Shown here: one piece after another, positions 2,899 to 28,444 of the stretch
Numbering within the stretch: position 1 is the stretch's first letter
Layout: the number at the start of each line of letters is the position of its first letter
From: a virus
Strand: one strand, 5' to 3'
DNA: 35,783 nt
Virus genome (UHGV): UHGV-0117379
Position numbers and translations under genes: made by a program
Notes under the pieces: generated by a model
Databases searched by the model: none
Seen by the model: only the letters and a program-made list of their open reading frames with translations
Told to the model about the DNA's origin: nothing

Positions 2899-3102
2899 AT
2901 GACACCTAACATTTCAATTACTCTGAATACACCACATGTCACAATCGAACGTTATAGCGAACTGACTGGCCTTTCTATTGATACGATTAACGACATGTTG
3001 GCTGATGGCCGACTACCTCGTCATCGTCTTCGTAAAGACAAAAAACGTGAAAAGGTAATGATTAACCTGGCTGCTCTGACTGTTGATGCTTTGTCTGCTT
3101 AA
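2899..3102 (+). CDS. apl: Apl-like excisionase/Cro-like HTH protein
   Basis: 67 aa; HTH ([28 protein letters not shown]) of the excisionase/AlpA type; first rightward gene opposite cI, as in 186. Confidence 0.65.
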
Positions 3103-3166
3103 TAGACGTCTATTTTCGCAATAAGACGCTGAGTTCGATTTTGCGATAAGTTCGGAGTTGAAAACC

Positions 3167-3676
3167 ATGTTTGATTACCAAGTTTCCAAACATCCACATT
3201 TTGATGAAGCCTGTCGTGCATTCGCACTGCGCCACAATCTGGTGCAACTGGCAGAACGTGCGGGCATGAATGTGCAGATTCTGCGGAACAAGCTGAACCC
3301 AGCTCAACCTCATTTATTAACCGCACCAGAAATCTGGCTGCTTACCGATCTGACTGAAGATTCAACGTTGGTAGATGGTTTTCTGGCACAGATTCATTGT
3401 CTGCCATGTGTACCGATTAATGAGGTAGCAAAAGAGAAACTGCCACATTACGTCATGAGTGCAACCGCAGAGATCGGGCGTGTTGCTGCAGGTGCGGTAT
3501 CTGGCGATGTAAAAACCAGTGCAGGTCGTCGTGATGCTATCAGCAGCATTAACTCTGTAACACGACTGATGGCGCTGGCGGCTGTTTCATTGCAGGCCCG
3601 TTTACAGGCTAATCCTGCGATGGCGAGTGCAGTTGATACCGTGACTGGCCTCGGTGCTTCATTCGGTTTGCTGTGA
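3167..3676 (+). CDS. cII: CII lysogeny-establishment activator (186 CII-like)
   Basis: 169 aa from ATG 3167 (GGAG 9 nt upstream); near colinear match to 186 CII (MFDFQVSKHPH...[28 protein letters not shown]...NPAM..GASFGL). Confidence 0.85.
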
Positions 3677-3683
3677 GGTGCTT

Positions 3684-3980
3684 ATGCTGACGAAAGAACC
3701 ATCATTTGCATCGCTGCTGGTAAAACAAAGCCCGGCAATGCACTACGGTCACGGCTGGATCATGGGTGAGGATGGTAAACGCTGGCATCCGTGCCGTTCA
3801 CAAGATGAATTGCTGTCTGAATTGACCACGGGGAAACGGAGAAAGTCAAAATGTATGCAGCGGAAAGTGAAGTGGTTTATCAGTTTCGTTACAGAGGGGA
3901 GAGTTATTCAGTACCTGAAGATGATTTGCTCTGTTGTTATCCGTCGTTGTCGGGCGATGGCAGTTACTTTTTCACGCTAA
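3684..3980 (+). CDS. Fil-like small protein (186 fil position), extent uncertain
   Basis: ATG 3684 with GAGG RBS; MLTKEPSFASLLVKQSP...GKRWHPCRSQ; the 3' portion overlaps the next gene in another frame, so the true end may be earlier. Confidence 0.4.
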   Translation: MLTKEPSFASLLVKQSPAMHYGHGWIMGEDGKRWHPCRSQDELLSELTTGKRRKSKCMQRKVKWFISFVTEGRVIQYLKMICSVVIRRCRAMAVTFSR

Positions 3981-4075
3981 AGGATGGGACGTTTTTACGG
4001 GGAGAGCAGGTTAAAGAGACGATACGAAAAAATGTATCTCCTCTTGAACGTTACCGTAAGAGCAAAGAACGATAG
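3851..4075 (+). CDS. Dhr-like small protein
   Basis: 74 aa; MYAAESEVVYQFRYRGESYSVPEDDLLCCYPSLSGDGSYFFTLKDG resembles 186 Dhr as recalled. Confidence 0.5.
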   Translation: MYAAESEVVYQFRYRGESYSVPEDDLLCCYPSLSGDGSYFFTLKDGTFLRGEQVKETIRKNVSPLERYRKSKER

Positions 4076-4097
4076 TTGCGTTTTGGGGATATGAATT

Positions 4098-4439
4098 ATG
4101 GCAATTAATGGCGCTGCGGCGACTGTTCCATTAAGCCCCGGTGAACGCCTGAATGGACTTAATCACATTGCGGAGTTAAGGGCGAAAGTTTTTGGCCTGA
4201 ATATTGAGTCAGAGCTTGAGCGGTTTATTAAAGATATGCGTGATCCACGGGATATCAATAGCGAACAAAATAAACGGGCACTGGCTGCCATATTCTTTAT
4301 GGCAAAAATTCCAGCTGAACGTCATAGCATCAGCATTAATGAGCTGACCACTGACGAAAAGCGGGAGTTGATTAAAGCAATGAATCATTTTCGTGCAGTG
4401 GTGAGCTTATTTCCCAGACGGCTAACCATGCCGAATTAA
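4098..4439 (+). CDS. Hypothetical early phage protein (113 aa)
   Basis: Intact ORF with GGGGA RBS; phage-like GC content; no recognisable domain. Confidence 0.55.
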   Translation: MAINGAAATVPLSPGERLNGLNHIAELRAKVFGLNIESELERFIKDMRDPRDINSEQNKRALAAIFFMAKIPAERHSISINELTTDEKRELIKAMNHFRAVVSLFPRRLTMPN

Positions 4440-4506
4440 CCAGCTAATGAAATTAATGGCGTAAACCCGCCGGGCATCCCTTTATCTAAATTCAGGAGAA
4501 TTGATT

Positions 4507-4740
4507 ATGCGTAATATTGAAACCCTCACGACTAAAACCGGACCGGATGACGCAGGGCTTAATATTTTACTGACAGAGGCTCGTCTGGAAGAACGCCGGG
4601 CAAGGGCTGAAGCAATGGCTGCCCGCCTTGATAGTCTTGCGTGTCATATCACATCCCGCCAGCTAAACCACGTCGAAGCGGCAGAACTGCTGCGTGTGAC
4701 CGCTGAAGCAATCCAGAACGAAGCGCAGGAGATCCACTAA
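4507..4740 (+). CDS. Hypothetical early phage protein (77 aa)
   Basis: ATG 4507 with AGGAG 8 nt upstream; stop overlaps next start (TAATG). Confidence 0.55.
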   Translation: MRNIETLTTKTGPDDAGLNILLTEARLEERRARAEAMAARLDSLACHITSRQLNHVEAAELLRVTAEAIQNEAQEIH

Positions 4741-9403: not shown

Positions 9404-9622
9404 ATGTCAAGTATCGCCGCATTGAAGCTGGGTAATCCAGTTGAACGTTTGGCACGGGTTCTGAAAGAGAACCAGGACAAGCTCAATCTGAGTAAAGATG
9501 GTTTTGTGTCCGTAGATTTGTCCAACGAAGAAGCTATGAAAGCCATCCGAGATCAGATGGATAAGCTTGAAGGCATCAAAACGAGCACTGTTAAAGCAAA
9601 ATATTATTACAGAACCCGATAA
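9404..9622 (+). CDS. Hypothetical 72-aa protein (first gene of accessory module)
   Basis: Strong RBS AAGGAGGGG; stop overlaps next start (TAATG). Confidence 0.55.
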   Translation: MSSIAALKLGNPVERLARVLKENQDKLNLSKDGFVSVDLSNEEAMKAIRDQMDKLEGIKTSTVKAKYYYRTR

Positions 9623-10464
9623 TGGCAACATTACTTTTAGCAGTGATTTTGGTTAGTGGTTTTATATATGTAAACCTATCACTTTCAACACGTTATAGAT
9701 ATAAGCGTTCCAATGGCTGGGACGCTTATTTTTTTGTGGCTGCATGGGGAATTGTCTTTTTCCTCGCTGGCGGCTTCCTTACCTTCGCTCTTAACATCAG
9801 CGGTGGGTTTCGCTGGTTTTCTAATGCGCTGAATCTGACTCCAGACAGCTTTAACGGGATGTTATCCACCACAACCGATAAACCGCAGCGCATCAATGAA
9901 ATTAAGCAAATCGCGTGGGTTGTGATTTCAATAGTTCTCGCGGCGCTGTTCGGTTGGCTAAACAAACGCCGTACTTCAAAAGGGGATCGCCGTTGGGATG
10001 CACTGGCAAAGGCAGTGGGAAACAATGCTTTTGAATCGCTGCTCATGGAAGCATCAGCTCGCCAGTTTCCTATCATTGCTACACTTTCATCACGCAAAAT
10101 CTATGTAGGGCTGGTGACTTGCCCTGCGTTGGAAAATGGATTGTCGGAACACCTTGAAATTCTCCCCTTGCTGAGCGGATATCGTGATAAAGACGACCTA
10201 ACGATAAATATCACGACAAACTATCATCAGCACTATCTTGATAGCGGTGTTATCAATGGGATGTCGCGCCTGAATATCCAGGATTTCCGTGTGCTTCTCC
10301 CTAAAGATGAAGTTGAAACCATCTCGTTTTTTGATACTGAAACGTATAACAAATTTAAAGAAAACGAAGCGCGTGACCGGAAAGACTGCCGCAAGTTGGG
10401 TGGTAAAAAGCCATCCGCACGCAGGAGAAAGACTGCTGGCGACGCAGAGCAGGGTAGTGCATGA
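9622..10464 (+). CDS. Membrane protein, 280 aa (3-4 N-terminal TM helices plus about 160 aa soluble domain)
   Basis: Hydrophobic stretches LLLAVILVSGFIYV, YFFVAAWGIVFFLAGGFLTFAL, IAWVVISIVLAALFGWL; translationally coupled to the 72-aa ORF. Confidence 0.6.
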   Translation: MATLLLAVILVSGFIYVNLSLSTRYRYKRSNGWDAYFFVAAWGIVFFLAGGFLTFALNISGGFRWFSNALNLTPDSFNGMLSTTTDKPQRINEIKQIAWVVISIVLAALFGWLNKRRTSKGDRRWDALAKAVGNNAFESLLMEASARQFPIIATLSSRKIYVGLVTCPALENGLSEHLEILPLLSGYRDKDDLTINITTNYHQHYLDSGVINGMSRLNIQDFRVLLPKDEVETISFFDTETYNKFKENEARDRKDCRKLGGKKPSARRRKTAGDAEQGSA

Positions 10465-10510
10465 CTATGCTGCATGAATTTGCATGATCGTTTGAGGATC
10501 GTTTTAGCTC

Positions 10511-10538
10511 CGGCCCGCCAGTTCAGGCGGGCTTTTTC
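10511..10538 (+). terminator. Rho-independent terminator after the membrane-protein gene
   Basis: GCCCGCC-AGTTCA-GGCGGGC stem-loop followed by TTTTT. Confidence 0.7.
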
Positions 10539-10584
10539 ATATCTCATGCAGGTGCATGAAAACCACTACACAAAGCGGGCAGGC

Positions 10585-10610
10585 GTGGCGGGGATACGAG
10601 CGCGCGCTCA
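10585..10610. other. Candidate cos site (GGCGTGGCGGGGA...)
   Basis: GGCGTGGCGGGGA at 10591..10603 matches the first 13 nt of the 186/P2 cohesive-end sequence as I recall it; lies between A-side genes and Q as expected. Confidence 0.3.
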
Positions 10611-10665
10611 TTACTTTTATAATTCTAGGGTTATAATACAGGGCTATCTTTCTAGGAGAAAACAC

Positions 10666-12318
10666 ATGTCCTTAGAGTTTATCAAAGAACAGTTGTCAGA
10701 TTTTATCTCATCTACAGAACCAGAAGTAATGGCTATACAGGGTGAATGGGGAATTGGTAAAACCTATACTTGGAATACGTTCCTAAAAGATAATAAAGAT
10801 AAGGTTGCATTTAATAGATATAGTTATGTCTCTCTTTTTGGTATAAATTCACTAGATTCTTTAAAGTATTCTATTTTTGAGAATGCAATTACAAAGGAAT
10901 ATATTGGAAATAAACCTGATTTGGAGACAGCAACAACAAACGCAAGTGGACTTTTTGAATCGTTTTCTCGAAAAGCCGCAGGTTTGTTAAAAGAAGCTCC
11001 TGTTGTAAAAAACTTCTCTACGACACTTGAAGCAATGTCATTTCTGACCGTTTCTAAAATGATTGTAGTAATAGATGACTTAGAAAGGCGTGGCAAAAAC
11101 TTAGATGTTAAAGATGTTTTAGGGCTAGTATCTCTATTAAAGGAGCAGAAGGATTGTAAGGTGGTTCTATTGCTTAACAATGGCACAGCTAGTATGGAGG
11201 ATTATTCTACTTATAAAGAAAAGGTCATTGATAGAGATATCACTTACAATCCAACACCAGAAGAATGCGCAGATATAGCCTATAAAGGTGATTTTCATGT
11301 TTATAACTTGTTAAGTAAATATTCCATTTCTTTAGGTATCAAGAATATTCGAATCTTAAAAAAGATAGAACGTTTTTTCGTGTCCTTAACACCAAATATT
11401 ATAGGTGATGTTGAGACAATTTCAAATGAAGTTGCGCATTCATTAACTCTGTATTGTTGGAGCCATTACGGATTTTCTCCAGAGGGAGATGTGCCATCAC
11501 TAGAATATATTAGGGGAGTGAGGAATATATATACTTATAATGACAAGGAAGAAGGCCATGAGAAAGTCTGGCTTAATACCTTGCTTAAATATGGATATAG
11601 AAAAACGAATGATCTTGATGAGGTTCTTATTGATATGGTTAGATATGGCTATCTTGATAAGAGCAGTTTCCAAAGACAAATAAGCCTAAGGAATGAGGAG
11701 ATTACGCGTGATAATAAACGAGGTTCCTTATCTGAGGCATGGCAGTTCTTTCATAATTCATTTGATGACAATCAAAATCAGGTTGTTGACAAGCTATATC
11801 AAGCGGTGGTTGATGGGATGAAGTATGTGACTCCAAGTGATTTAGATAATGTTGTCGGACTATATAGGGATTTCGGAGAGAATGCTAAGGCGAGTGAATT
11901 GATTGAACAGTTTATTAATTATGGTAACGATGCTCTAAAGGAATATGTTCAATCTATTTATGTGAATGTTCATCCCGTAAGAGATGCTGAGTTGTTGTCA
12001 AAAATTCAAGCCTATTCTAATATTATAAATATTGATGGTTCAATATATGATGTTCTTAAGAAATTATCAGGTCAGAATGGTTGGTCTGATAGACATGAGG
12101 AAATATTGGATGCTGCTTCAGTAGATGACTACTATCAATTATTTAAAAATGTCATTCTTGATGGTGGTGATTCAATAATAGCTACGGCGCTTAAATTCGG
12201 AAATTATAGTAATGGTTCTGATAGAATGAATCGTATAGGGAAAAAGGCAAGGGATGCCTTGATAAGAATTGGAGATGAATCGGCGATTAATAAAATACGT
12301 GTAAGGCGATTTTTGTGA
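10666..12318 (+). CDS. KAP-family P-loop NTPase (550 aa), AT-rich accessory gene
   Basis: Walker A IQGEWGIGKTYTWN (G-x-W-G-x-GKT KAP signature), Walker B MIVVIDDLER; ATG 10666 with AGGAG RBS and TATAAT elements upstream; much lower GC than phage core; flanked by terminators. Confidence 0.8.
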   Translation: MSLEFIKEQLSDFISSTEPEVMAIQGEWGIGKTYTWNTFLKDNKDKVAFNRYSYVSLFGINSLDSLKYSIFENAITKEYIGNKPDLETATTNASGLFESFSRKAAGLLKEAPVVKNFSTTLEAMSFLTVSKMIVVIDDLERRGKNLDVKDVLGLVSLLKEQKDCKVVLLLNNGTASMEDYSTYKEKVIDRDITYNPTPEECADIAYKGDFHVYNLLSKYSISLGIKNIRILKKIERFFVSLTPNIIGDVETISNEVAHSLTLYCWSHYGFSPEGDVPSLEYIRGVRNIYTYNDKEEGHEKVWLNTLLKYGYRKTNDLDEVLIDMVRYGYLDKSSFQRQISLRNEEITRDNKRGSLSEAWQFFHNSFDDNQNQVVDKLYQAVVDGMKYVTPSDLDNVVGLYRDFGENAKASELIEQFINYGNDALKEYVQSIYVNVHPVRDAELLSKIQAYSNIINIDGSIYDVLKKLSGQNGWSDRHEEILDAASVDDYYQLFKNVILDGGDSIIATALKFGNYSNGSDRMNRIGKKARDALIRIGDESAINKIRVRRFL

Positions 12319-20819: not shown

Positions 20820-22331
20820 ATGCGCCCCAAAATTGGTGATTTTGAATTTGGTGAGGTTTATGGAGAGAATGAGGTATTATTTCTCGATAATTACTCGAAA
20901 TATTTTTATGATATAAATAATTCATTAAGTAAACTTGATAGAAAAAATAAAATGCTCGTAATTGGCAGGAAGGGGACGGGTAAGACATTGCTTGTTAATG
21001 TCTACTGTAACGCCAAGCGAAAAAATAATTATATTGCAGTTGTGGAATCATTAAAAGATTTTGTTTTTCATGAACTTACTCACTTTCAGGGGCAGGATGT
21101 GTCTTCCACAAAATATGTACCAATTTTCAAGTGGATGATATTGGTCAATCTTGCTAAGAATATTGTAAGTAATAAAAAAGGATTTAGTGAGGATAAAATA
21201 GTTCATTTGGAAAGTTTTTTACGTTCTTTTGGCCATGTCGCGGGCGAGTTAAGGCCTGAGCAAACAGTTGAAATAACTAGGGAGTACCAAGCGTCGGGTG
21301 AGGTTGGTATCGGATTTAGATTCCCAGTATTACGTGGTGAAGCCAAAGCAAAAGATGGTGAGGTCGAGAAAACAAAAGAAACAAAAAAGAATTATTTGGA
21401 ATGTATGGAATCTTTGCAGTGTTTTATTGTTGACATGCTAAAAGAGAGTAATAAAAAAATATATGTATTTTATGATGAGTTAGATGATAAGTTTGATGCA
21501 ACAGTTGAATATAAAAATGCAATGATAAGTTTTTTAAATGCTGTTGTGTCAATTAATAAAACTCTAATGCAAAATAAAATAGATGCTAAAATTGGTGCAG
21601 TTATTCGTCATGATATAATAAATACTTTTTCATCGCCGAATATTAATAAAATCATTGAAGATAACTCTGTTACACTTGATTGGTGTTCTGCTGGAGAACG
21701 AGCAAGTGATTCTGAGATTTTTGATATGATTGCTTTTAAGATCAAAAACTCCACTGATTATTATAATGATTTAAATGGTTCTAATTTGTTCGGGAAAATT
21801 TTCACTGAGAGAGTTGCAGGTGAGCATAGCTCTATTTATATTTTACATAGAACTCTAGGTCGCCCAAGAGATGCCGTTAGGATGCTAACTTATATTCAAG
21901 ATGAATATGGAGAAAATACTGAAAGATTTGAAAGTTCCATGTTTACAAAGATTTCTAAAAAATACTCATCTTATCTTTTACGTGAAATTAGATCTGAGCT
22001 TGCGGGACATTTAAGTGATTCAGAAATAGATGACAGTTTTTCTCTTTTACGTTCAGTAAAAAAAAGAGGTTTCACTCCACATTTAATCAAGGAAAAATTT
22101 GAAGAATTGAAGTTAGGAGATGGTACATTAACGCTTAATAAAATACTGAGTTGTTTATTTAAAGTCGGTGCTATCGGGAATGTACTCAGGAGATCTAAAA
22201 CAGATGGCGGAGATGTTTATTTGTGGTCATTTAATGATGAAGATTTAGAAATGGACCCAACGTTGAATTTTGAAATACACTGTGGTTTGTGGGATGCACT
22301 AGGAATTATCAAGCCTAAACTTAGGCAATAA
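20820..22331 (+). CDS. P-loop NTPase, 503 aa, AT-rich accessory gene inserted between S and V (candidate anti-phage/abortive-infection protein)
   Basis: Walker A GRKGTGKT, Walker B IYVFYDELDD, later LGRPRD; about 230 aa C-terminal domain of unknown fold; GC far below neighbours; TATAAT at 20786..20791, AGGA RBS, own terminator. Confidence 0.75.
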   Translation: MRPKIGDFEFGEVYGENEVLFLDNYSKYFYDINNSLSKLDRKNKMLVIGRKGTGKTLLVNVYCNAKRKNNYIAVVESLKDFVFHELTHFQGQDVSSTKYVPIFKWMILVNLAKNIVSNKKGFSEDKIVHLESFLRSFGHVAGELRPEQTVEITREYQASGEVGIGFRFPVLRGEAKAKDGEVEKTKETKKNYLECMESLQCFIVDMLKESNKKIYVFYDELDDKFDATVEYKNAMISFLNAVVSINKTLMQNKIDAKIGAVIRHDIINTFSSPNINKIIEDNSVTLDWCSAGERASDSEIFDMIAFKIKNSTDYYNDLNGSNLFGKIFTERVAGEHSSIYILHRTLGRPRDAVRMLTYIQDEYGENTERFESSMFTKISKKYSSYLLREIRSELAGHLSDSEIDDSFSLLRSVKKRGFTPHLIKEKFEELKLGDGTLTLNKILSCLFKVGAIGNVLRRSKTDGGDVYLWSFNDEDLEMDPTLNFEIHCGLWDALGIIKPKLRQ

Positions 22332-24287: not shown

Positions 24288-24885
24288 TCTGCTGCCACCG
24301 GGTTCAACACCACTGGAGCGCCGACTGGCGCAAACCTGCAGCGGGATTTCTGATCTGCAGGTGCCGCTGCGTGACTTGTGGAATCCGGCAACCTGTCCGG
24401 TCAGTTTCCTGCCTTATCTCGCCTGGGCGTTCTCTGTGGATCGCTGGGACGAGGGCTGGACAGAAAGCGTCAAGCGCCAGGTGGTGAAGGATGCTTTTTA
24501 TATTCATCAGCATAAAGGGACCACCAGTGCCGTGCGGCGGGTGGTGGAGCCGTTCGGCTTTCTGATCCGCATTATTGAGTGGTGGCAGACCGGAGAGGCA
24601 CCGGGCACGTTTCGCCTGGATATCGGCGTGCAGGACCAGGGCATCACTGAAGATACCTATCTGGAACTTGAGCGACTGATAAGCGATGCCAAACCATGTA
24701 GCCGTCACATGATCGGCATGTCCATCAATCTGCAGACCAGCGGCCCGCATTGGGTGGGAGCCGCCAGCTATCTTGGCGAAGAAATCACGATCTATCCGTA
24801 TATCAACGAAACAATTATTTCCGGCGGCACCGCGCATGAAGGCGGGGCGGTCCATGTTATTGACACAATGAGAGTGAATCCATGA
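24280..24885 (+). CDS. I: Tail/baseplate protein I (P2 gpI)
   Basis: 201 aa; position and size as P2 I. Confidence 0.8.
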   Translation: MNSLLPPGSTPLERRLAQTCSGISDLQVPLRDLWNPATCPVSFLPYLAWAFSVDRWDEGWTESVKRQVVKDAFYIHQHKGTTSAVRRVVEPFGFLIRIIEWWQTGEAPGTFRLDIGVQDQGITEDTYLELERLISDAKPCSRHMIGMSINLQTSGPHWVGAASYLGEEITIYPYINETIISGGTAHEGGAVHVIDTMRVNP

Positions 24886-26435
24886 GCACAAAATTTTATA
24901 CCCTGCTGACGGATATTGGCGCGGCGAAACTTGCCAGCGCCGCCGCGCTCGGTGTGCCTTTAAAAATTACCCATATGGCGGTCGGCGATGGCGGCGGAAC
25001 ATTACCAACGCCGGACGCAAAGCAGACAGCACTGGTAAATGAGAAACGCCGGGCTGCGCTGAATATGCTCTATATCGACCCGCAGAACAGCAGCCAGATT
25101 ATTGCTGAACAGGTGATCCCTGAAAACGAGGGCGGTTGGTGGATACGTGAAGTGGGCCTGTTTGATGAGTCCGGGGCATTGATTGCCGTGGGCAACTGCC
25201 CGGAAAGCTATAAGCCGCAACTGGCTGAAGGCAGCGGGCGTACCCAGACCGTGCGTATGGTGTTGATTACCAGCAGCACGGACAATATCACCCTGAAAAT
25301 CGACCCTGCCGTAGTGCTGGCAACCCGCAAGTATGTGGATGATAAGGTACTGGAGCTGAAGGTGTACGCGGATGATCAGATGGCAAAACATCTTGCCGCA
25401 CCGGACCCGCATTCACAGTATGCACAGAAAGAAAGTCCTACGTTTACCGGGACACCCAAAGCGCCAACGCCAGCGGCGGGGAATAACACCACGCAGGTTG
25501 CGACCACCGCGTTTGTTCAGGAGGCACTGACGGCTCTTATTAATGGTGCGCCAGCCACGCTGGACACGCTGAAAGAAATAGCCGTAGCCATTAACAATGA
25601 TCCGAAATTCAGTACCACCATTAACAATGCGCTGGCACTGAAAGCGCCGCTGTCGAGTCCGGCACTCACCGGAACGCCAACAGCCCCCACGGCGGCGCAG
25701 TCGGTCAACAATACACAGATTGCCACCACGGCTTTTGTGAAATCGGCGATTGCGGCAATGGTGGGTTCTGCACCTGCGGCACTGGATACACTGAACGAAC
25801 TGGCGGCGGCGCTGGGGAATGACCCGAACTTTGCCACGACAATGCTTAATGCACTGGCAGGTAAACAACCGCTGGACAATACGCTGACTAATTTGAGTGG
25901 AAAGGATGTTGCTGGTCTTCTCGCATACCTTGGTTTGGGAGAAGGCTCTGCATTACCTGTTGGTGTCCCTGTTCCGTGGCCTTTAGCAACTCCGCCAACA
26001 GGCTGGTTGAAATGCAACGGTGCGCCATTTATCGCCTCCCAATATCCGAAGCTTGCTCTCGCTTACCCCGGTCTTTTGCTGCCAGACCTGCGCGGTGAAT
26101 TTATTCGTGGATGGGATGATGGGCGAGGGGTTGATCCAGGGCGTTCGATAGGGTCTAGCCAGGGATGGTCTCCAGGATCGCACGTCCACGGCTTGGAAAT
26201 TTGGACATCGGCTAGCGGCAGCATCCCAACTAGTACAACTGTACCATCGCAGAACGGTAGGGAGTTAGGGCCAGCAGCGACAGCAGGCGACGGCGGCGTT
26301 ATCCGATCACTTGGCGGCAGCGGCGGGACAAACAACAACTCTGCTACTTCTGTGACTACGCAGAGCCCCACCTTTGGAAACCAAGAAGGTTACCCGCGCA
26401 ACGTCGCATTTAACTATATCGTGAGGGCAGCCTGA
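24882..26435 (+). CDS. H: Tail fibre protein H (constant N-terminus; two about 70-aa internal repeats; C-terminal variable part inside invertible segment)
   Basis: P2-H-like N-terminus MSTKFYTLLTDIGAAKLA; tandem repeats PTFTGTPKAPT..TQVATTAFV...LDTL.E.A.A...DP.F; C-terminal tail-collar-like domain (WLKCNGAPF...YP.L....P..L.PDLRGEFIRGWDDGRGVD). Confidence 0.85.
   Translation: MSTKFYTLLTDIGAAKLASAAALGVPLKITHMAVGDGGGTLPTPDAKQTALVNEKRRAALNMLYIDPQNSSQIIAEQVIPENEGGWWIREVGLFDESGALIAVGNCPESYKPQLAEGSGRTQTVRMVLITSSTDNITLKIDPAVVLATRKYVDDKVLELKVYADDQMAKHLAAPDPHSQYAQKESPTFTGTPKAPTPAAGNNTTQVATTAFVQEALTALINGAPATLDTLKEIAVAINNDPKFSTTINNALALKAPLSSPALTGTPTAPTAAQSVNNTQIATTAFVKSAIAAMVGSAPAALDTLNELAAALGNDPNFATTMLNALAGKQPLDNTLTNLSGKDVAGLLAYLGLGEGSALPVGVPVPWPLATPPTGWLKCNGAPFIASQYPKLALAYPGLLLPDLRGEFIRGWDDGRGVDPGRSIGSSQGWSPGSHVHGLEIWTSASGSIPTSTTVPSQNGRELGPAATAGDGGVIRSLGGSGGTNNNSATSVTTQSPTFGNQEGYPRNVAFNYIVRAA
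25928..25947. other. Invertase crossover site (gix/cix-like), left copy inside H
   Basis: CTTGGTTTGGGAGAAGG is an inverted repeat of 27796..27812. Confidence 0.55.
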
Positions 26436-27037
26436 TGAATAAAGCCGTATTAAATAGCGAACTCATTACTACAAAGGCAGGAAACATTACCGTTTATAAT
26501 TTTGATGCTGAGACGAAGGAATATCTTTCCACATCAACCGAATACCTTGCTGTGGGTGTCGGTATTCCGGCGTATTCATGCTTAGATGCACCAGGTACAC
26601 ATAAAGCCGGTTATGCAATCTGCCGCTCTGCAGATTTTAACTCATGGGAATATGTGCCAGACCATCGCGGTGAAATCATCTATAGCACCGAAACAGGAGA
26701 ATCGAAAGAAATCACATCTCTGGGTGATTACCCTGAAAATACAACCACTATCGCCCCGTTAACGCCATATGATAAATGGGATGGTGAGAAATGGGTGACG
26801 GATACTGAGGCACAGCATAGCGCCGCAGTAGAAGCGGCAGAAGCACAGCGCCAGTCACTGATTGATGCAGCAATGTCTTCCATCAGTCTGATTCAACTGA
26901 AATTACAGGCCGGACGGAAGCTGACGCAGGCAGAAACAACCCGACTTAACGCTGTGCTGGATTATATTGACGCGGTGACGGCAACAGATACCAGCACCGC
27001 GCCTGATGTCATCTGGCCTGAACTGCCGGAGGCGTAG
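26435..27037 (+). CDS. G: Tail fibre assembly protein G (Tfa), current orientation
   Basis: 200 aa; ATGA overlap with H stop; C-terminal ...DVIWPELP typical of the Tfa family. Confidence 0.8.
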   Translation: MNKAVLNSELITTKAGNITVYNFDAETKEYLSTSTEYLAVGVGIPAYSCLDAPGTHKAGYAICRSADFNSWEYVPDHRGEIIYSTETGESKEITSLGDYPENTTTIAPLTPYDKWDGEKWVTDTEAQHSAAVEAAEAQRQSLIDAAMSSISLIQLKLQAGRKLTQAETTRLNAVLDYIDAVTATDTSTAPDVIWPELPEA

Positions 27038-27449
27038 GCCATTCAATATCTGGCGCACCGGAAGTATCGACCAGTTCCAGTGCGTCCAGATAATCCAGCC
27101 ACAAATTATATTGCACCAGTTCCTCACCTTTCAGGCGACCAATCGCCGCTTTACCAGGCCATTGCTTACTGTTTATGTATTCGTTGACCTGATTAATCAA
27201 TTGCTGCTTTTTCAGTTCGGCTGCGGCAATTTGTTCCTCATGAGTTGGCGGTGGAATATCAATCCATGCAGGCATTCCGTCGATGACACCTCTGTATTTT
27301 CCTTCTGGTGCTTCCTTCATAAATTCGGCAGCAACAGTGTCGTCAATTTCGATTCCATCATCGGGCCATTCGCCGGATTCCTGATAAGCGATTTTAAGCT
27401 CCACAGGGAAAAACGCATTTTTATCGGCACTGAAAATATATTTCTGCAT
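27009..27449 (-). CDS. Alternative tail fibre assembly protein (G'), opposite strand within invertible segment
   Basis: 146 aa; C-terminal ...DIEWPTPP Tfa signature; convergent 29-nt overlap with G as in Mu U/U'. Confidence 0.75.
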   Translation of the reverse strand: MQKYIFSADKNAFFPVELKIAYQESGEWPDDGIEIDDTVAAEFMKEAPEGKYRGVIDGMPAWIDIPPPTHEEQIAAAELKKQQLINQVNEYINSKQWPGKAAIGRLKGEELVQYNLWLDYLDALELVDTSGAPDIEWPTPPAVQAR

Positions 27450-27451
27450 TT

Positions 27452-27795
27452 CTACCGTCCTATCGAAATATAACTGAATCTGTATTGCTGTGAGATATCA
27501 CTGGTTGCCACACGCCACGCTGAATTACTGATATGTTCAAAATTTACAGACAAAACCTGCGGGGCAGGAATCGACGGGTCTGACTGAACGGCATCAGACA
27601 TAACACTGACTGAAACCATCGGCTGATTAGGGAATGGTATAGGGAAGTGTCCACTGATAAAGCGGGTCGTGTTTCCTGAAAAAGTGCCAAACTGAACAAT
27701 ATATCCACCTGGTAGCCTGAACCATCCCGAACCAGAAGCGAATGCTCCCATATCCGGTATCTGATTATCTCCTGTGCCCACATCCCTTTTCGCCG
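27452..27795 (-). CDS. Alternative tail-fibre C-terminal variable segment (H'), start-less fragment to be fused to H after inversion
   Basis: ORF 27452..27850 on minus strand ends one nucleotide before G'; its 5' end runs into the crossover site; no plausible independent start. Confidence 0.55.
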
Positions 27796-27818
27796 CTTCT
27801 CCCAAACCAACGTTTAAG
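27793..27818. other. Invertase crossover site (gix/cix-like), right copy
   Basis: TTCTCCCAAACCAACGTTTAAGAAAA resembles the Gin gix consensus TTATCCAAAACCTCGGTTTACAGGAA as recalled; inverted copy of 25928..25947. Confidence 0.55.
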
Positions 27819-27877
27819 AAAATGCAGAGGTAACAGCTAACTGGCATCATCTCCGGTTTTTATTCAGGGGGATGATC

Positions 27878-28444
27878 ATGCTTATTGGCTATGTACGCGT
27901 GTCAACAAATGACCAGAACACCGATTTGCAACGTAATGCACTGAACTGCGCGGGATGTGAGCGGATTTTTGAGGACAAAATCAGTGGCACTAAGTCCGAC
28001 AGACCGGGGCTGAAAAAACTACTCAGGACACTATCGGCAGGAGACACGCTGGTTGTCTGGAAGCTGGACAGGTTGGGGCGCAGTATGCGGCATCTTGTTA
28101 CGCTGATAGAAGAGTTGCGCCAGCGTGGTGTGAATTTCAGAAGCCTGACTGACAGTATTGATACCAGTACCCCAATGGGCCGTTTCTTTTTTCATGTCAT
28201 GGGTGCCCTAGCTGAAATGGAACGCGAACTGATAGTTGAACGTACCAGGGCGGGGCTGGCTGCAGCTCGTGATAAAGGCAGAGTAGGTGGACGCCGTCCT
28301 AAGTTGACCACCGAACAGTGGGCACAGATTGGACGCTTACTCGAGGCCGGAGAATCAAGACAGCGTATTGCACTGATTTTTGATGTGGGTGTTTCCACAA
28401 TTTATAGAAAATTTCCGGCAAATAAGAGTAATGAATCCCCCTGA
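27878..28444 (+). CDS. Serine DNA invertase (Gin/Cin/Pin/Hin family)
   Basis: MLIGYVRVSTNDQNTDLQRNAL...VVWKLDRLGRSM.HL....EL..RG.NFRSLTDSIDTS.PMGRFFFHVMGALAEMERELI.ERT.AGLAAAR.KGR.GGR.PKLT close match to Mu Gin / P1 Cin as recalled. Confidence 0.9.
   Translation: MLIGYVRVSTNDQNTDLQRNALNCAGCERIFEDKISGTKSDRPGLKKLLRTLSAGDTLVVWKLDRLGRSMRHLVTLIEELRQRGVNFRSLTDSIDTSTPMGRFFFHVMGALAEMERELIVERTRAGLAAARDKGRVGGRRPKLTTEQWAQIGRLLEAGESRQRIALIFDVGVSTIYRKFPANKSNESP

Follow-up and report, generated by a model that had tools for sequence, protein, structure and literature searches.

In a P2-like Klebsiella prophage, the cassette that lies between the tail-fibre gene H and the sheath gene FI is a Pin/Gin-type DNA-inversion switch by which one receptor-binding fibre tip is exchanged for another. 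We assign a probability of roughly 0.93 to our full reading, namely a Pin/Gin-type site-specific inversion switch, probably dependent on Fis and an enhancer, for the fibre tip of a temperate P2-like phage of K. pneumoniae. This is a real switch, and its activity is almost certain; it is also a textbook case, ordinary and already known in kind, because public genomes carry the same prophage in both orientations, and it adds nothing on mechanism. Judged by its sequence, the source phage is essentially Klebsiella phage KP12 (OM835953), which matches the cassette at 99.9% identity and has a record that already annotates a "DNA invertase"; our search of the literature found no paper describing inversion in this particular Klebsiella prophage.

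In the window (the whole stretch of DNA that was analysed, 35,783 nucleotides), Pfam searches identified Tail_P2_I and sheath domains, and a GPA replication protein, a CI repressor and an integrase are encoded elsewhere in it. P2_Phage_GpR, Phage_tail_S, Phage_base_V, GPW_gp25, Baseplate_J, Phage_tube and Phage_P2_GpE were all found in the identical locus. These P2-specific families and the gene order R-S-V-W-J-I-H-G ... FI-FII-E-T-U-D are those of a P2-like (Peduoviridae) tail module, as had been proposed in a preliminary description of this DNA.

Two fibre tips between inverted crossover sites

The longest inverted repeat within the 24-30 kb region has arms of 27 nt (25918-25944 and 27796-27822) that are 81% complementary, and in these arms lie two inverted, imperfectly palindromic 26-bp sites with matching 2-bp cores, as expected for the Din family (Table 1). 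The cores are compatible, since the AA of the right site reads TT on the minus strand and the left site carries TT. Both sites are conserved, the right one differing from e14 pixR at a single position and the left one from pixL at three, and both share their half-site pattern with cix of P1 and gix of Mu. A degenerate palindromic pattern with up to three mismatches occurred at exactly two places in the 35.8-kb window, compared with 0.00 in 100 shuffles, and no third site was detected in the window by a scan that allowed up to seven mismatches. Shufflon-like multiple inversion, as in one P2-like prophage of EPEC, was considered and rejected, given that these scans revealed no third crossover site in the window. 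The preliminary description had correctly proposed inverted 26-bp sites, but its placement of them at 25928..25947 and 27793..27818 was off by 4 to 10 bases.

Table 1. Features of the invertible cassette and their positions in the window
Feature	Position	Strand	Remarks
Gene H, current form, 517 aa	24882-26435	+	Phage_tail_fib N-terminal domain and Collar
H constant N-terminal part, residues 1 to ~349	24882..25929	+	ends at crossover point
Left crossover site, pixL-like, 26 bp	25918..25943		TTCTCGCATACC-TT-GGTTTGGGAGAA, core TT 25930-25931
Variable tip A, residues 355-517	25944..26435	+	now expressed; collar domain, Gly-rich C-terminus
Tip A tail-fibre assembly chaperone, TfaE-like, 200 aa	26435..27037	+	Caudo_TAP, E=1.6e-32
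Tip B chaperone, silent, 146 aa	27009..27449	-	Pfam Caudo_TAP, E=9.3e-34
Silent tip B, 114 aa and stop	27452..27796	-	Pfam Gp53-like_C, E=4e-9
Right crossover site, pixR-like, 26 bp	27797..27822		TTCTCCCAAACC-AA-CGTTTAAGAAAA, core AA 27809-27810
Probable extended -10 element, putative invertase promoter	27842..27850	+	TGGCATCAT
Serine DNA invertase, 188 aa, Pin/Gin/Cin/Hin family	27878..28444	+	Pfam Resolvase and HTH_7
P1 cin enhancer-homologous interval	27896..27967		two G-N13-C 15-mers, candidate Fis sites

The left site forms an in-frame part of H, in which codons 346-354 encode LLAYLGLGE. The constant part of H carries a P2-type N-terminal fibre domain (Pfam Phage_tail_fib, residues 1-150, E=3.6e-65) and is fused to whichever tip adjoins this site. 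At present this is tip A, whose Collar domain (PF07484) occupies H residues 361-408 (E=1.4e-11) and which shows a relationship to the gp37 tip of T4 (structure 2xgf, E=3e-14). Among solved structures, no relative of tip B was found by sequence, and no similarity between the two tips could be detected (BLASTP E=25). NCBIfam offered no specific equivalog for the fibre proteins or for the invertase. When the segment was inverted in silico at the site centres, the constant part of H became joined to tip B in an in-frame protein of 468 aa (H'), which has its first 354 residues in common with the present 517-aa product.

The start of the tip A tfa gene overlaps the H stop codon (ATGA), and its product is 89.5% identical to e14 TfaE, while the tip B chaperone is 54% identical to e14 TfaP. 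The two tfa genes are convergent and overlap by 29 bp, and both silent genes are intact ORFs. The locus has the architecture of a host-range cassette, with a constant N-terminus outside the segment, two oppositely oriented C-termini and their chaperones inside it, and both fusions in frame. This agrees with the preliminary description, which had placed two alternative H C-termini with cognate Tfa genes in opposite orientations between the sites, had seen a collar-domain tip as the one currently expressed and the silent tip as unrelated in sequence, and had envisaged that inversion would swap the tip on the constant H N-terminus.

Invertase and proposed mechanism

Directly downstream of the segment, an ORF at 27872-28444 with its probable start at 27878 encodes a resolvase catalytic domain with a serine nucleophile (E=7e-53) and a C-terminal HTH_7 domain (E=1.5e-15), the combination typical of small serine recombinases. 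The match of this protein to structure 3uj3 of Mu Gin (E=3e-93) includes the aligned stretch GYVRVSTNDQ, and the protein retains R42 as well as the catalytic Ser9, whose mutation had been named beforehand as evidence against a switch. First described as a close homologue of Gin and Cin, the enzyme is indeed homologous to both (73% identity to Mu Gin and 77% to P1 Cin), but its closest relative is e14 Pin (85%). PADLOC returned nothing for the invertase.

The switch is probably Fis/enhancer-dependent, as suggested by the invertase residues; the 5' end of the gene contains a candidate enhancer. The residues uniquely conserved in Fis/enhancer-dependent invertases are K47, K/R48, K/R51, Q151, R154 and L155 of Hin (PMC3798978). 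All six positions are represented here by K46, K47, R50, Q150, R153 and L154 (Hin numbering minus one), as in Gin, Cin and Pin. For P1, the recombinational enhancer is annotated at nt 19-90 of the cin gene, and in the homologous interval two candidate Fis 15-mers (27899-27913 and 27948-27962) occupy the same positions in the window, e14 and Mu, with a start-to-start spacing of 49 bp in all three. The spacing in Hin is 48 bp, to which we gave no weight. Over the interval, the window agrees with P1 at 56/72 positions, with Mu at 52/72 and with e14 at 63/72; because this DNA also codes for the N-terminus, where the invertase is most conserved, such conservation is not independent evidence for an enhancer.

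A consensus scan that required a -35 hexamer detected no sigma-70 promoter upstream of the invertase. In an alignment of the window, e14, Mu and E. coli, the spacer was divergent except for T53, G54, G55, C56, A57, T58, A60 and T61, which were invariant (alignment columns 53-61) and are the basis for the probable extended -10 element at 27842-27850, an element that the consensus scan did not pick up. A weak terminator-like hairpin at 27839-27858, overlapping the conserved TGGCATCAT block, was not regarded as reliable. Fis dependence is what we infer for this system, as are the invertase promoter and the switching rate.

In the mechanism that we propose, the 188-aa invertase would be expressed from a weak promoter of its own that lies immediately outside the segment. 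Bound as dimers to both inverted 26-bp sites, it would bring these into synapsis with the enhancer, which would be occupied by Fis and lie in the 5' part of the invertase gene. The central TT/AA dinucleotides would then be cut, half of the complex would rotate, and religation would leave the 1.88-kb segment (25930-27810) inverted. The constant part of H, in the late baseplate/fibre operon, would be the sole point of entry for transcription and translation, so that each orientation would yield one fibre: at present H(1-354) with the collar tip and the TfaE-like chaperone (517 aa), and after inversion H(1-354) with the gp53-like tip and the other chaperone (468 aa). The virions released by a population of lysogens would therefore be mixed, with two receptor specificities among them.

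Both orientations in public genomes

The preliminary description had taken the detection of only one orientation as an argument against a switch, and both were found. The exact 468-aa H' is present in K. pneumoniae on 97 contigs and the present 517-aa H on 197, each assembly giving one consensus orientation. One K. pneumoniae locus (L008) corresponds to the in-silico inverted window with only 2 mismatches in 13,407 bp, both of them SNPs outside the segment; compared with the window as it stands, it differs only within 25945-27795. The same cassette, at 93-97% identity, is also present in prophages of E. coli, where both orientations occur; the inverted junction is contiguous in 31 genomes (identity up to 99%) and the present junction in 84. 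In comparison with one E. coli locus (L001), the collinear flanks stop and the inverted block starts within the repeat arms. Across assemblies, the segment is found in both orientations, as is characteristic of the Din family. The question of orientation was settled by the exact-protein look-up and contig retrieval; when the full-length inverted sequence was used as a query against the phage collection, no record reached at least 80% coverage, the best being the E. coli prophage CP019275 (76%, vs 48% for the present orientation).

The same orientations could in principle be old and fixed in separate lineages, the cassette being a fossil from an e14- or P2-like ancestor, and that no strong invertase promoter was detected would fit such a history. 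We nevertheless consider it highly improbable, since an opposite-orientation copy only 2 SNPs per 13.4 kb away implies an inversion that is very recent relative to point mutation, and since both exact fibre proteins are common, the silent genes are both intact and the invertase, identical in the E. coli and Klebsiella copies, keeps its catalytic and regulatory residues. Extremely improbable, in our view, is that the orientations differ through RecA-dependent homologous recombination of the host rather than through the invertase. Inverted repeats can in principle recombine in this way, but the longest identical run in the repeat is ∼15 nt (GGTTTGGGAGAAG plus core), far below the length of efficient RecA substrates, and the repeats are bona fide pix-type sites beside an intact Pin homologue. 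Moreover, an 18-nt repeat between the two tfa genes, longer than that identical run, was not associated with a matching rearrangement in the loci examined.

It could also be argued that the switch does invert but chiefly benefits the host or other elements, for instance through an invertase acting in trans, with both tips conferring the same host range. Din-family invertases are known to cross-complement, two invertases reportedly act on flagellar phase variation in Salmonella (Kutsukake 2006, as cited in PMC4272514), and the identical invertase is very widespread (a cluster of 2365 members, with the exact sequence on more than 1000 contigs). We regard this as very unlikely, because the tips are of unrelated domain families and a chaperone is dedicated to each of them, which is the arrangement of receptor-binding alternation, and because action in trans would supplement tip switching rather than replace it.

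Relation to known switches and host range

Closest to the tip-swapping switch described here is the e14 P-segment/Pin system of E. coli K-12, as judged by the invertase, the crossover sites and the chaperones. The segments are of similar size (1.88 kb here and ∼1.83 kb in e14), the e14 gene order stfP-tfaP / tfaE-stfE / pinE matches, and the invertase lies downstream of the segment in both. However, the fibre gene of e14, a defective lambdoid prophage, is truncated, whereas here H is full-length and the P2-like tail module intact, and the tip sequences differ. Mu G/Gin and P1 C/Cin follow the common logic of a constant Sc with opposed Sv-U and Sv'-U' units and have 26-bp sites as well, and their enhancer is located at the 5' end of the invertase gene, where the candidate lies here; the Mu G order Sc-Sv-U / U'-Sv' / gin matches the present architecture. 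Their segments are larger (3 kb in Mu and 4.2 kb in P1), and their fibre and chaperone sequences differ from the present ones, the chaperones being 25-30% identical. In P1 the invertase gene flanks the opposite side of the segment, and cixL is found at the 3' end of the gene. The core dinucleotide here, TT/AA, is that of P1 and not the GA/TC of Mu.

Invertible tail-fibre segments have also been described in P2-like prophages of EPEC E2348/69 (PMC4272514), and inversion was shown by sequencing for the segments of e14 and of P2-like prophages of EPEC, with confirmation by PCR for e14 (PMC4272514). An invertase has further been noted at the P2 Z/fun hotspot (bioRxiv 10.1101/2024.10.15.618418). 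The segments of P2-like prophages occupy the same location and do not differ in kind from the present cassette, although three sites and three tips, instead of the two here, occur in some relatives.

By analogy with the Mu and P1 precedents, the two tips would be expected to give different host ranges, and their membership in unrelated families (Collar and Gp53-like_C) fits the expectation of differing specificity. Since K. pneumoniae is capsulated, we treat this difference in host range as an assumption. Tips, chaperones and invertase are 90-100% identical between K. pneumoniae and E. coli prophages, so that Klebsiella might be the target of one tip and E. coli or other Enterobacteriaceae that of the second; that the two orientations give one P2-like phage a cross-genus host range is a tentative idea, and we think it rather unlikely. 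If it were true, the switch would be a vehicle for the transfer of the prophage and its cargo genes between genera, like Mu G(+)/G(-).

The value of these observations is mainly for annotation and practical work. Lysates would be expected to be mixtures of two specificities, which is relevant to host-range assays and phage typing and also bears on the therapeutic or engineering use of KP12-like phages. In this widespread P2-like prophage of K. pneumoniae and E. coli, the tail fibre has two alternative products, one of which normally appears in annotations, wrongly, as a small "phage tail protein" of its own or "gp53-like domain-containing protein".

Orientation of the fibre segment in related genomes

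The preliminary description placed a Gin/Cin-type invertible cassette in this region, with two alternative C-termini of the tail-fibre gene H and their own tail-fibre assembly chaperone (tfa) genes lying in opposite orientations between two crossover sites. This arrangement is borne out by the pairing of tip A with the first tfa gene on the plus strand and of tip B with the second on the minus strand, and we regard the invertible fibre cassette as real and its original interpretation as correct and well supported. The cassette lies between H and FI, within a complete P2/186-type prophage carrying an integrase, a CI repressor, gpA and the tail genes R, S, V, W, J, I, H / FI, FII, E, E′ and T.

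Features of the fibre cassette
Feature	Coordinates	Strand	Characteristics
H, 517 aa	24882-26435	+	P2-type N-terminal fibre domain, E = 3.6e-65; Collar domain, residues 361-408
Left 26-bp site	25918-25943		inside H; TTCTCGCATACC-TT-GGTTTGGGAGAA; codons 346-354, peptide LLAYLGLGE
Tip A, expressed	25944-26435	+	relative of T4 gp37 tip structure 2xgf, E = 3e-14
First tfa, 200 aa	26435-27037	+	Caudo_TAP; 89.5% identity with e14 TfaE
Second tfa, 146 aa	27009-27449	-	Caudo_TAP; 54% identity with e14 TfaP
Tip B, silent	27452 to right site	-	Gp53-like_C
Right 26-bp site	27797-27822		TTCTCCCAAACC-AA-CGTTTAAGAAAA
Invertase, 188 aa	27878-28444 (ORF from 27872)	+	Resolvase + HTH_7

The silent tip was indeed unrelated to the expressed collar-domain tip, the two sharing no similarity by BLASTP (E = 25) and belonging to different domain families (Gp53-like_C versus Collar); a search for relatives of tip B among solved structures returned none. 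The stop codon of H coincides with the start point of the first tfa gene. The convergent tfa genes share 29 bp (27009-27037); a search between them revealed no terminator-like site, and an 18-nt inverted repeat (26956-26973/27082-27099, 89% complementary) reflects their conserved C-termini.

Inverting the segment in silico at the site centres (25930-27810) preserved the reading frame and joined H(1-354) to tip B in a 468-aa protein, with the second tfa gene beginning two bases after it. The proposed swap of tips on a constant H N-terminus is matched by a known product: public protein records place exactly this sequence, named "phage tail protein", on 97 contigs of K. pneumoniae, against 197 contigs for the 517-aa H of the window. 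Four loci encoding the 468-aa form were retrieved for comparison. The K. pneumoniae locus of GCA_029877445.1 differed from the in silico inverted window at 2 of 13,407 positions, both outside the cassette, and its mismatches to the window as it stands, these two SNPs aside, ran from 25945 to 27795, exactly between the repeat arms. In an E. coli prophage (L001), the whole cassette lies in the opposite orientation, and the alignment switches from collinear to inverted within the repeat arms. The cassette is therefore not confined to a single orientation. Among E. coli genomes, 31 contain the predicted inverted junction (701 bp) as one contiguous match of up to 99.0% identity, and 84 contain the present junction contiguously.

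Since copies in opposite orientation differ by only 2 SNPs in 13 kb, the inversion is recent. Together with the intact enzyme and intact sites, this favours an active inversion switch, by far the best reading of these sequence comparisons.

Crossover sites, invertase and enhancer

The strongest inverted repeat within 24-30 kb is the pair 25918-25944/27796-27822 (27 nt, 81% complementary). The preliminary description had recognized the same two sites, but its coordinates (25928-25947 and 27793-27818) were 4 to 10 bases off. Both 26-bp sites are imperfect palindromes, and the AA core of the right site reads TT on the opposite strand, so the two cores match as required for recombination between inverted sites. 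A degenerate palindromic pattern, allowing 3 or fewer mismatches, matched only these two sites in the 35,783-bp window (0.00 in 100 shuffles), and a scan tolerating up to 7 mismatches revealed no third crossover site.

The start of the invertase follows its alignment to Gin, Pin and Cin. The protein, correctly described as a Gin/Cin homologue, is 85% identical to PinE of the E. coli K-12 prophage e14, 77% to P1 Cin, 73% to Mu Gin and 100% to the invertase of prophage L001, and its match to the crystal structure of Mu Gin, 3uj3, has E = 3e-93. Both Ser9 (the nucleophile) and Arg42 are kept. Fis/enhancer-dependent invertases uniquely conserve K47, K/R48 and K/R51 in helix B of Hin, as well as Q151, R154 and L155 in its DNA-binding domain (McLean et al., PMC3798978); the invertase described here has K46, K47, R50, Q150, R153 and L154 at these places, in agreement with Gin, Cin and Pin. 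The gene is exactly flanked, from ribosome-binding site to stop codon, by a perfect 12-nt inverted repeat (27862-27873/28435-28446, ATTCAGGGGGAT/ATCCCCCTGAAT). Such a repeat is expected by chance about once per 6 kb; this one may be coincidental or may mark mobility of the invertase gene.

In the P1 record, the Cin enhancer is annotated at cin nucleotides 19-90. The homologous interval in the window, 27896-27967, shares 56 of 72 positions with P1, 52 with Mu and 63 with e14; its two G-N13-C 15-mers (27899-27913 and 27948-27962) occupy the gene positions that they have in Mu and e14. We consider it probable, and no more because the same DNA codes for the most conserved part of the invertase, that this interval acts as a recombinational enhancer. 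The spacer that leads from the right site to the invertase start codon is divergent except for TGGCATCAT (27842-27850), which is invariant across the window, Mu, e14 and E. coli and is probably an extended -10 element driving the invertase gene; a consensus scan requiring a -35 hexamer gave no match at this block. On its minus strand, the block supplies the ATG from which gene callers annotate the silent tip separately, as ORF 27452-27850.

That the cassette is merely a fossil is unlikely given its intact genes and the near-identical copies in opposite orientation. RecA could in principle invert a segment between repeats, but this route is also unlikely here, the repeat being just 27 nt long, 81% identical and a bona fide pix site adjoining a Pin homologue. 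The invertase might possibly act in trans on other loci, a role that would add to the fibre switch rather than substitute for it.

Known systems and host range

The cassette is a standard element of a kind already described. It follows the same logic as Mu G/Gin and P1 C/Cin, and its sites share their half-site pattern with Mu gix and P1 cix as read from the Mu and P1 records. It agrees with the e14 P segment in size (1.88 kb here, ∼1.83 kb there), gene order and one chaperone, the right site being 1 base off pixR and the left site 3 bases off pixL. Coexisting orientations of such segments have been reported in e14, with additional confirmation by PCR, and for EPEC E2348/69 in two of its P2-like prophages (Goldberg et al., PMC4272514). 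In a recent preprint, a Klebsiella ST14 prophage under experimental evolution is reported to have undergone a ∼5-kb inversion beside a DNA invertase; given the greater length of that segment, the phage may be a different one.

By analogy with Mu and P1, the switch would alter host range. Since the cassette is common to Klebsiella and E. coli, a cross-genus host range mediated by the two tips is allowed, short of demonstrated, and this possibility is the sole mildly novel point.

Over the cassette, the window shares 99.9% identity with Klebsiella phage KP12 (OM835953), in whose record a DNA invertase is already annotated; its identity to the Klebsiella phages of the Kp48xx-2 series is 95%. The KP12 tail-fibre gene is split into two CDS of 1269 and 243 nt (positions 3001-4553 of the KP12 locus, L002), and its match is 2 bases shorter than that of the window, which points to a frameshift or to indel errors in the deposited gene. 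The taxonomy line of this record (Vequintavirinae) is at odds with its P2-like genome.

Cargo genes elsewhere in the window

On the plus strand, tail-completion gene S and baseplate gene V flank a gene for a 503-aa P-loop ATPase (20820-22331; NCBIfam Sll1717 family, E = 1.2e-80), which gave only weak matches to anti-phage models. This slot is empty in KP12, holds a PcfJ-domain gene in an E. coli relative and carries a frameshifted copy of the ATPase gene in one further locus (L007). It has the look of a variable slot for cargo and may serve in defence. Two more cargo genes (9622-12318, plus strand) occupy the P2 old/tin hotspot, flanked by replication gene A and the portal gene. A family search with the 280-aa product gave no match; the 614-aa product is a KAP-family P-loop NTPase matching the PADLOC candidate defence model PDC-S49 (E = 5.7e-28).
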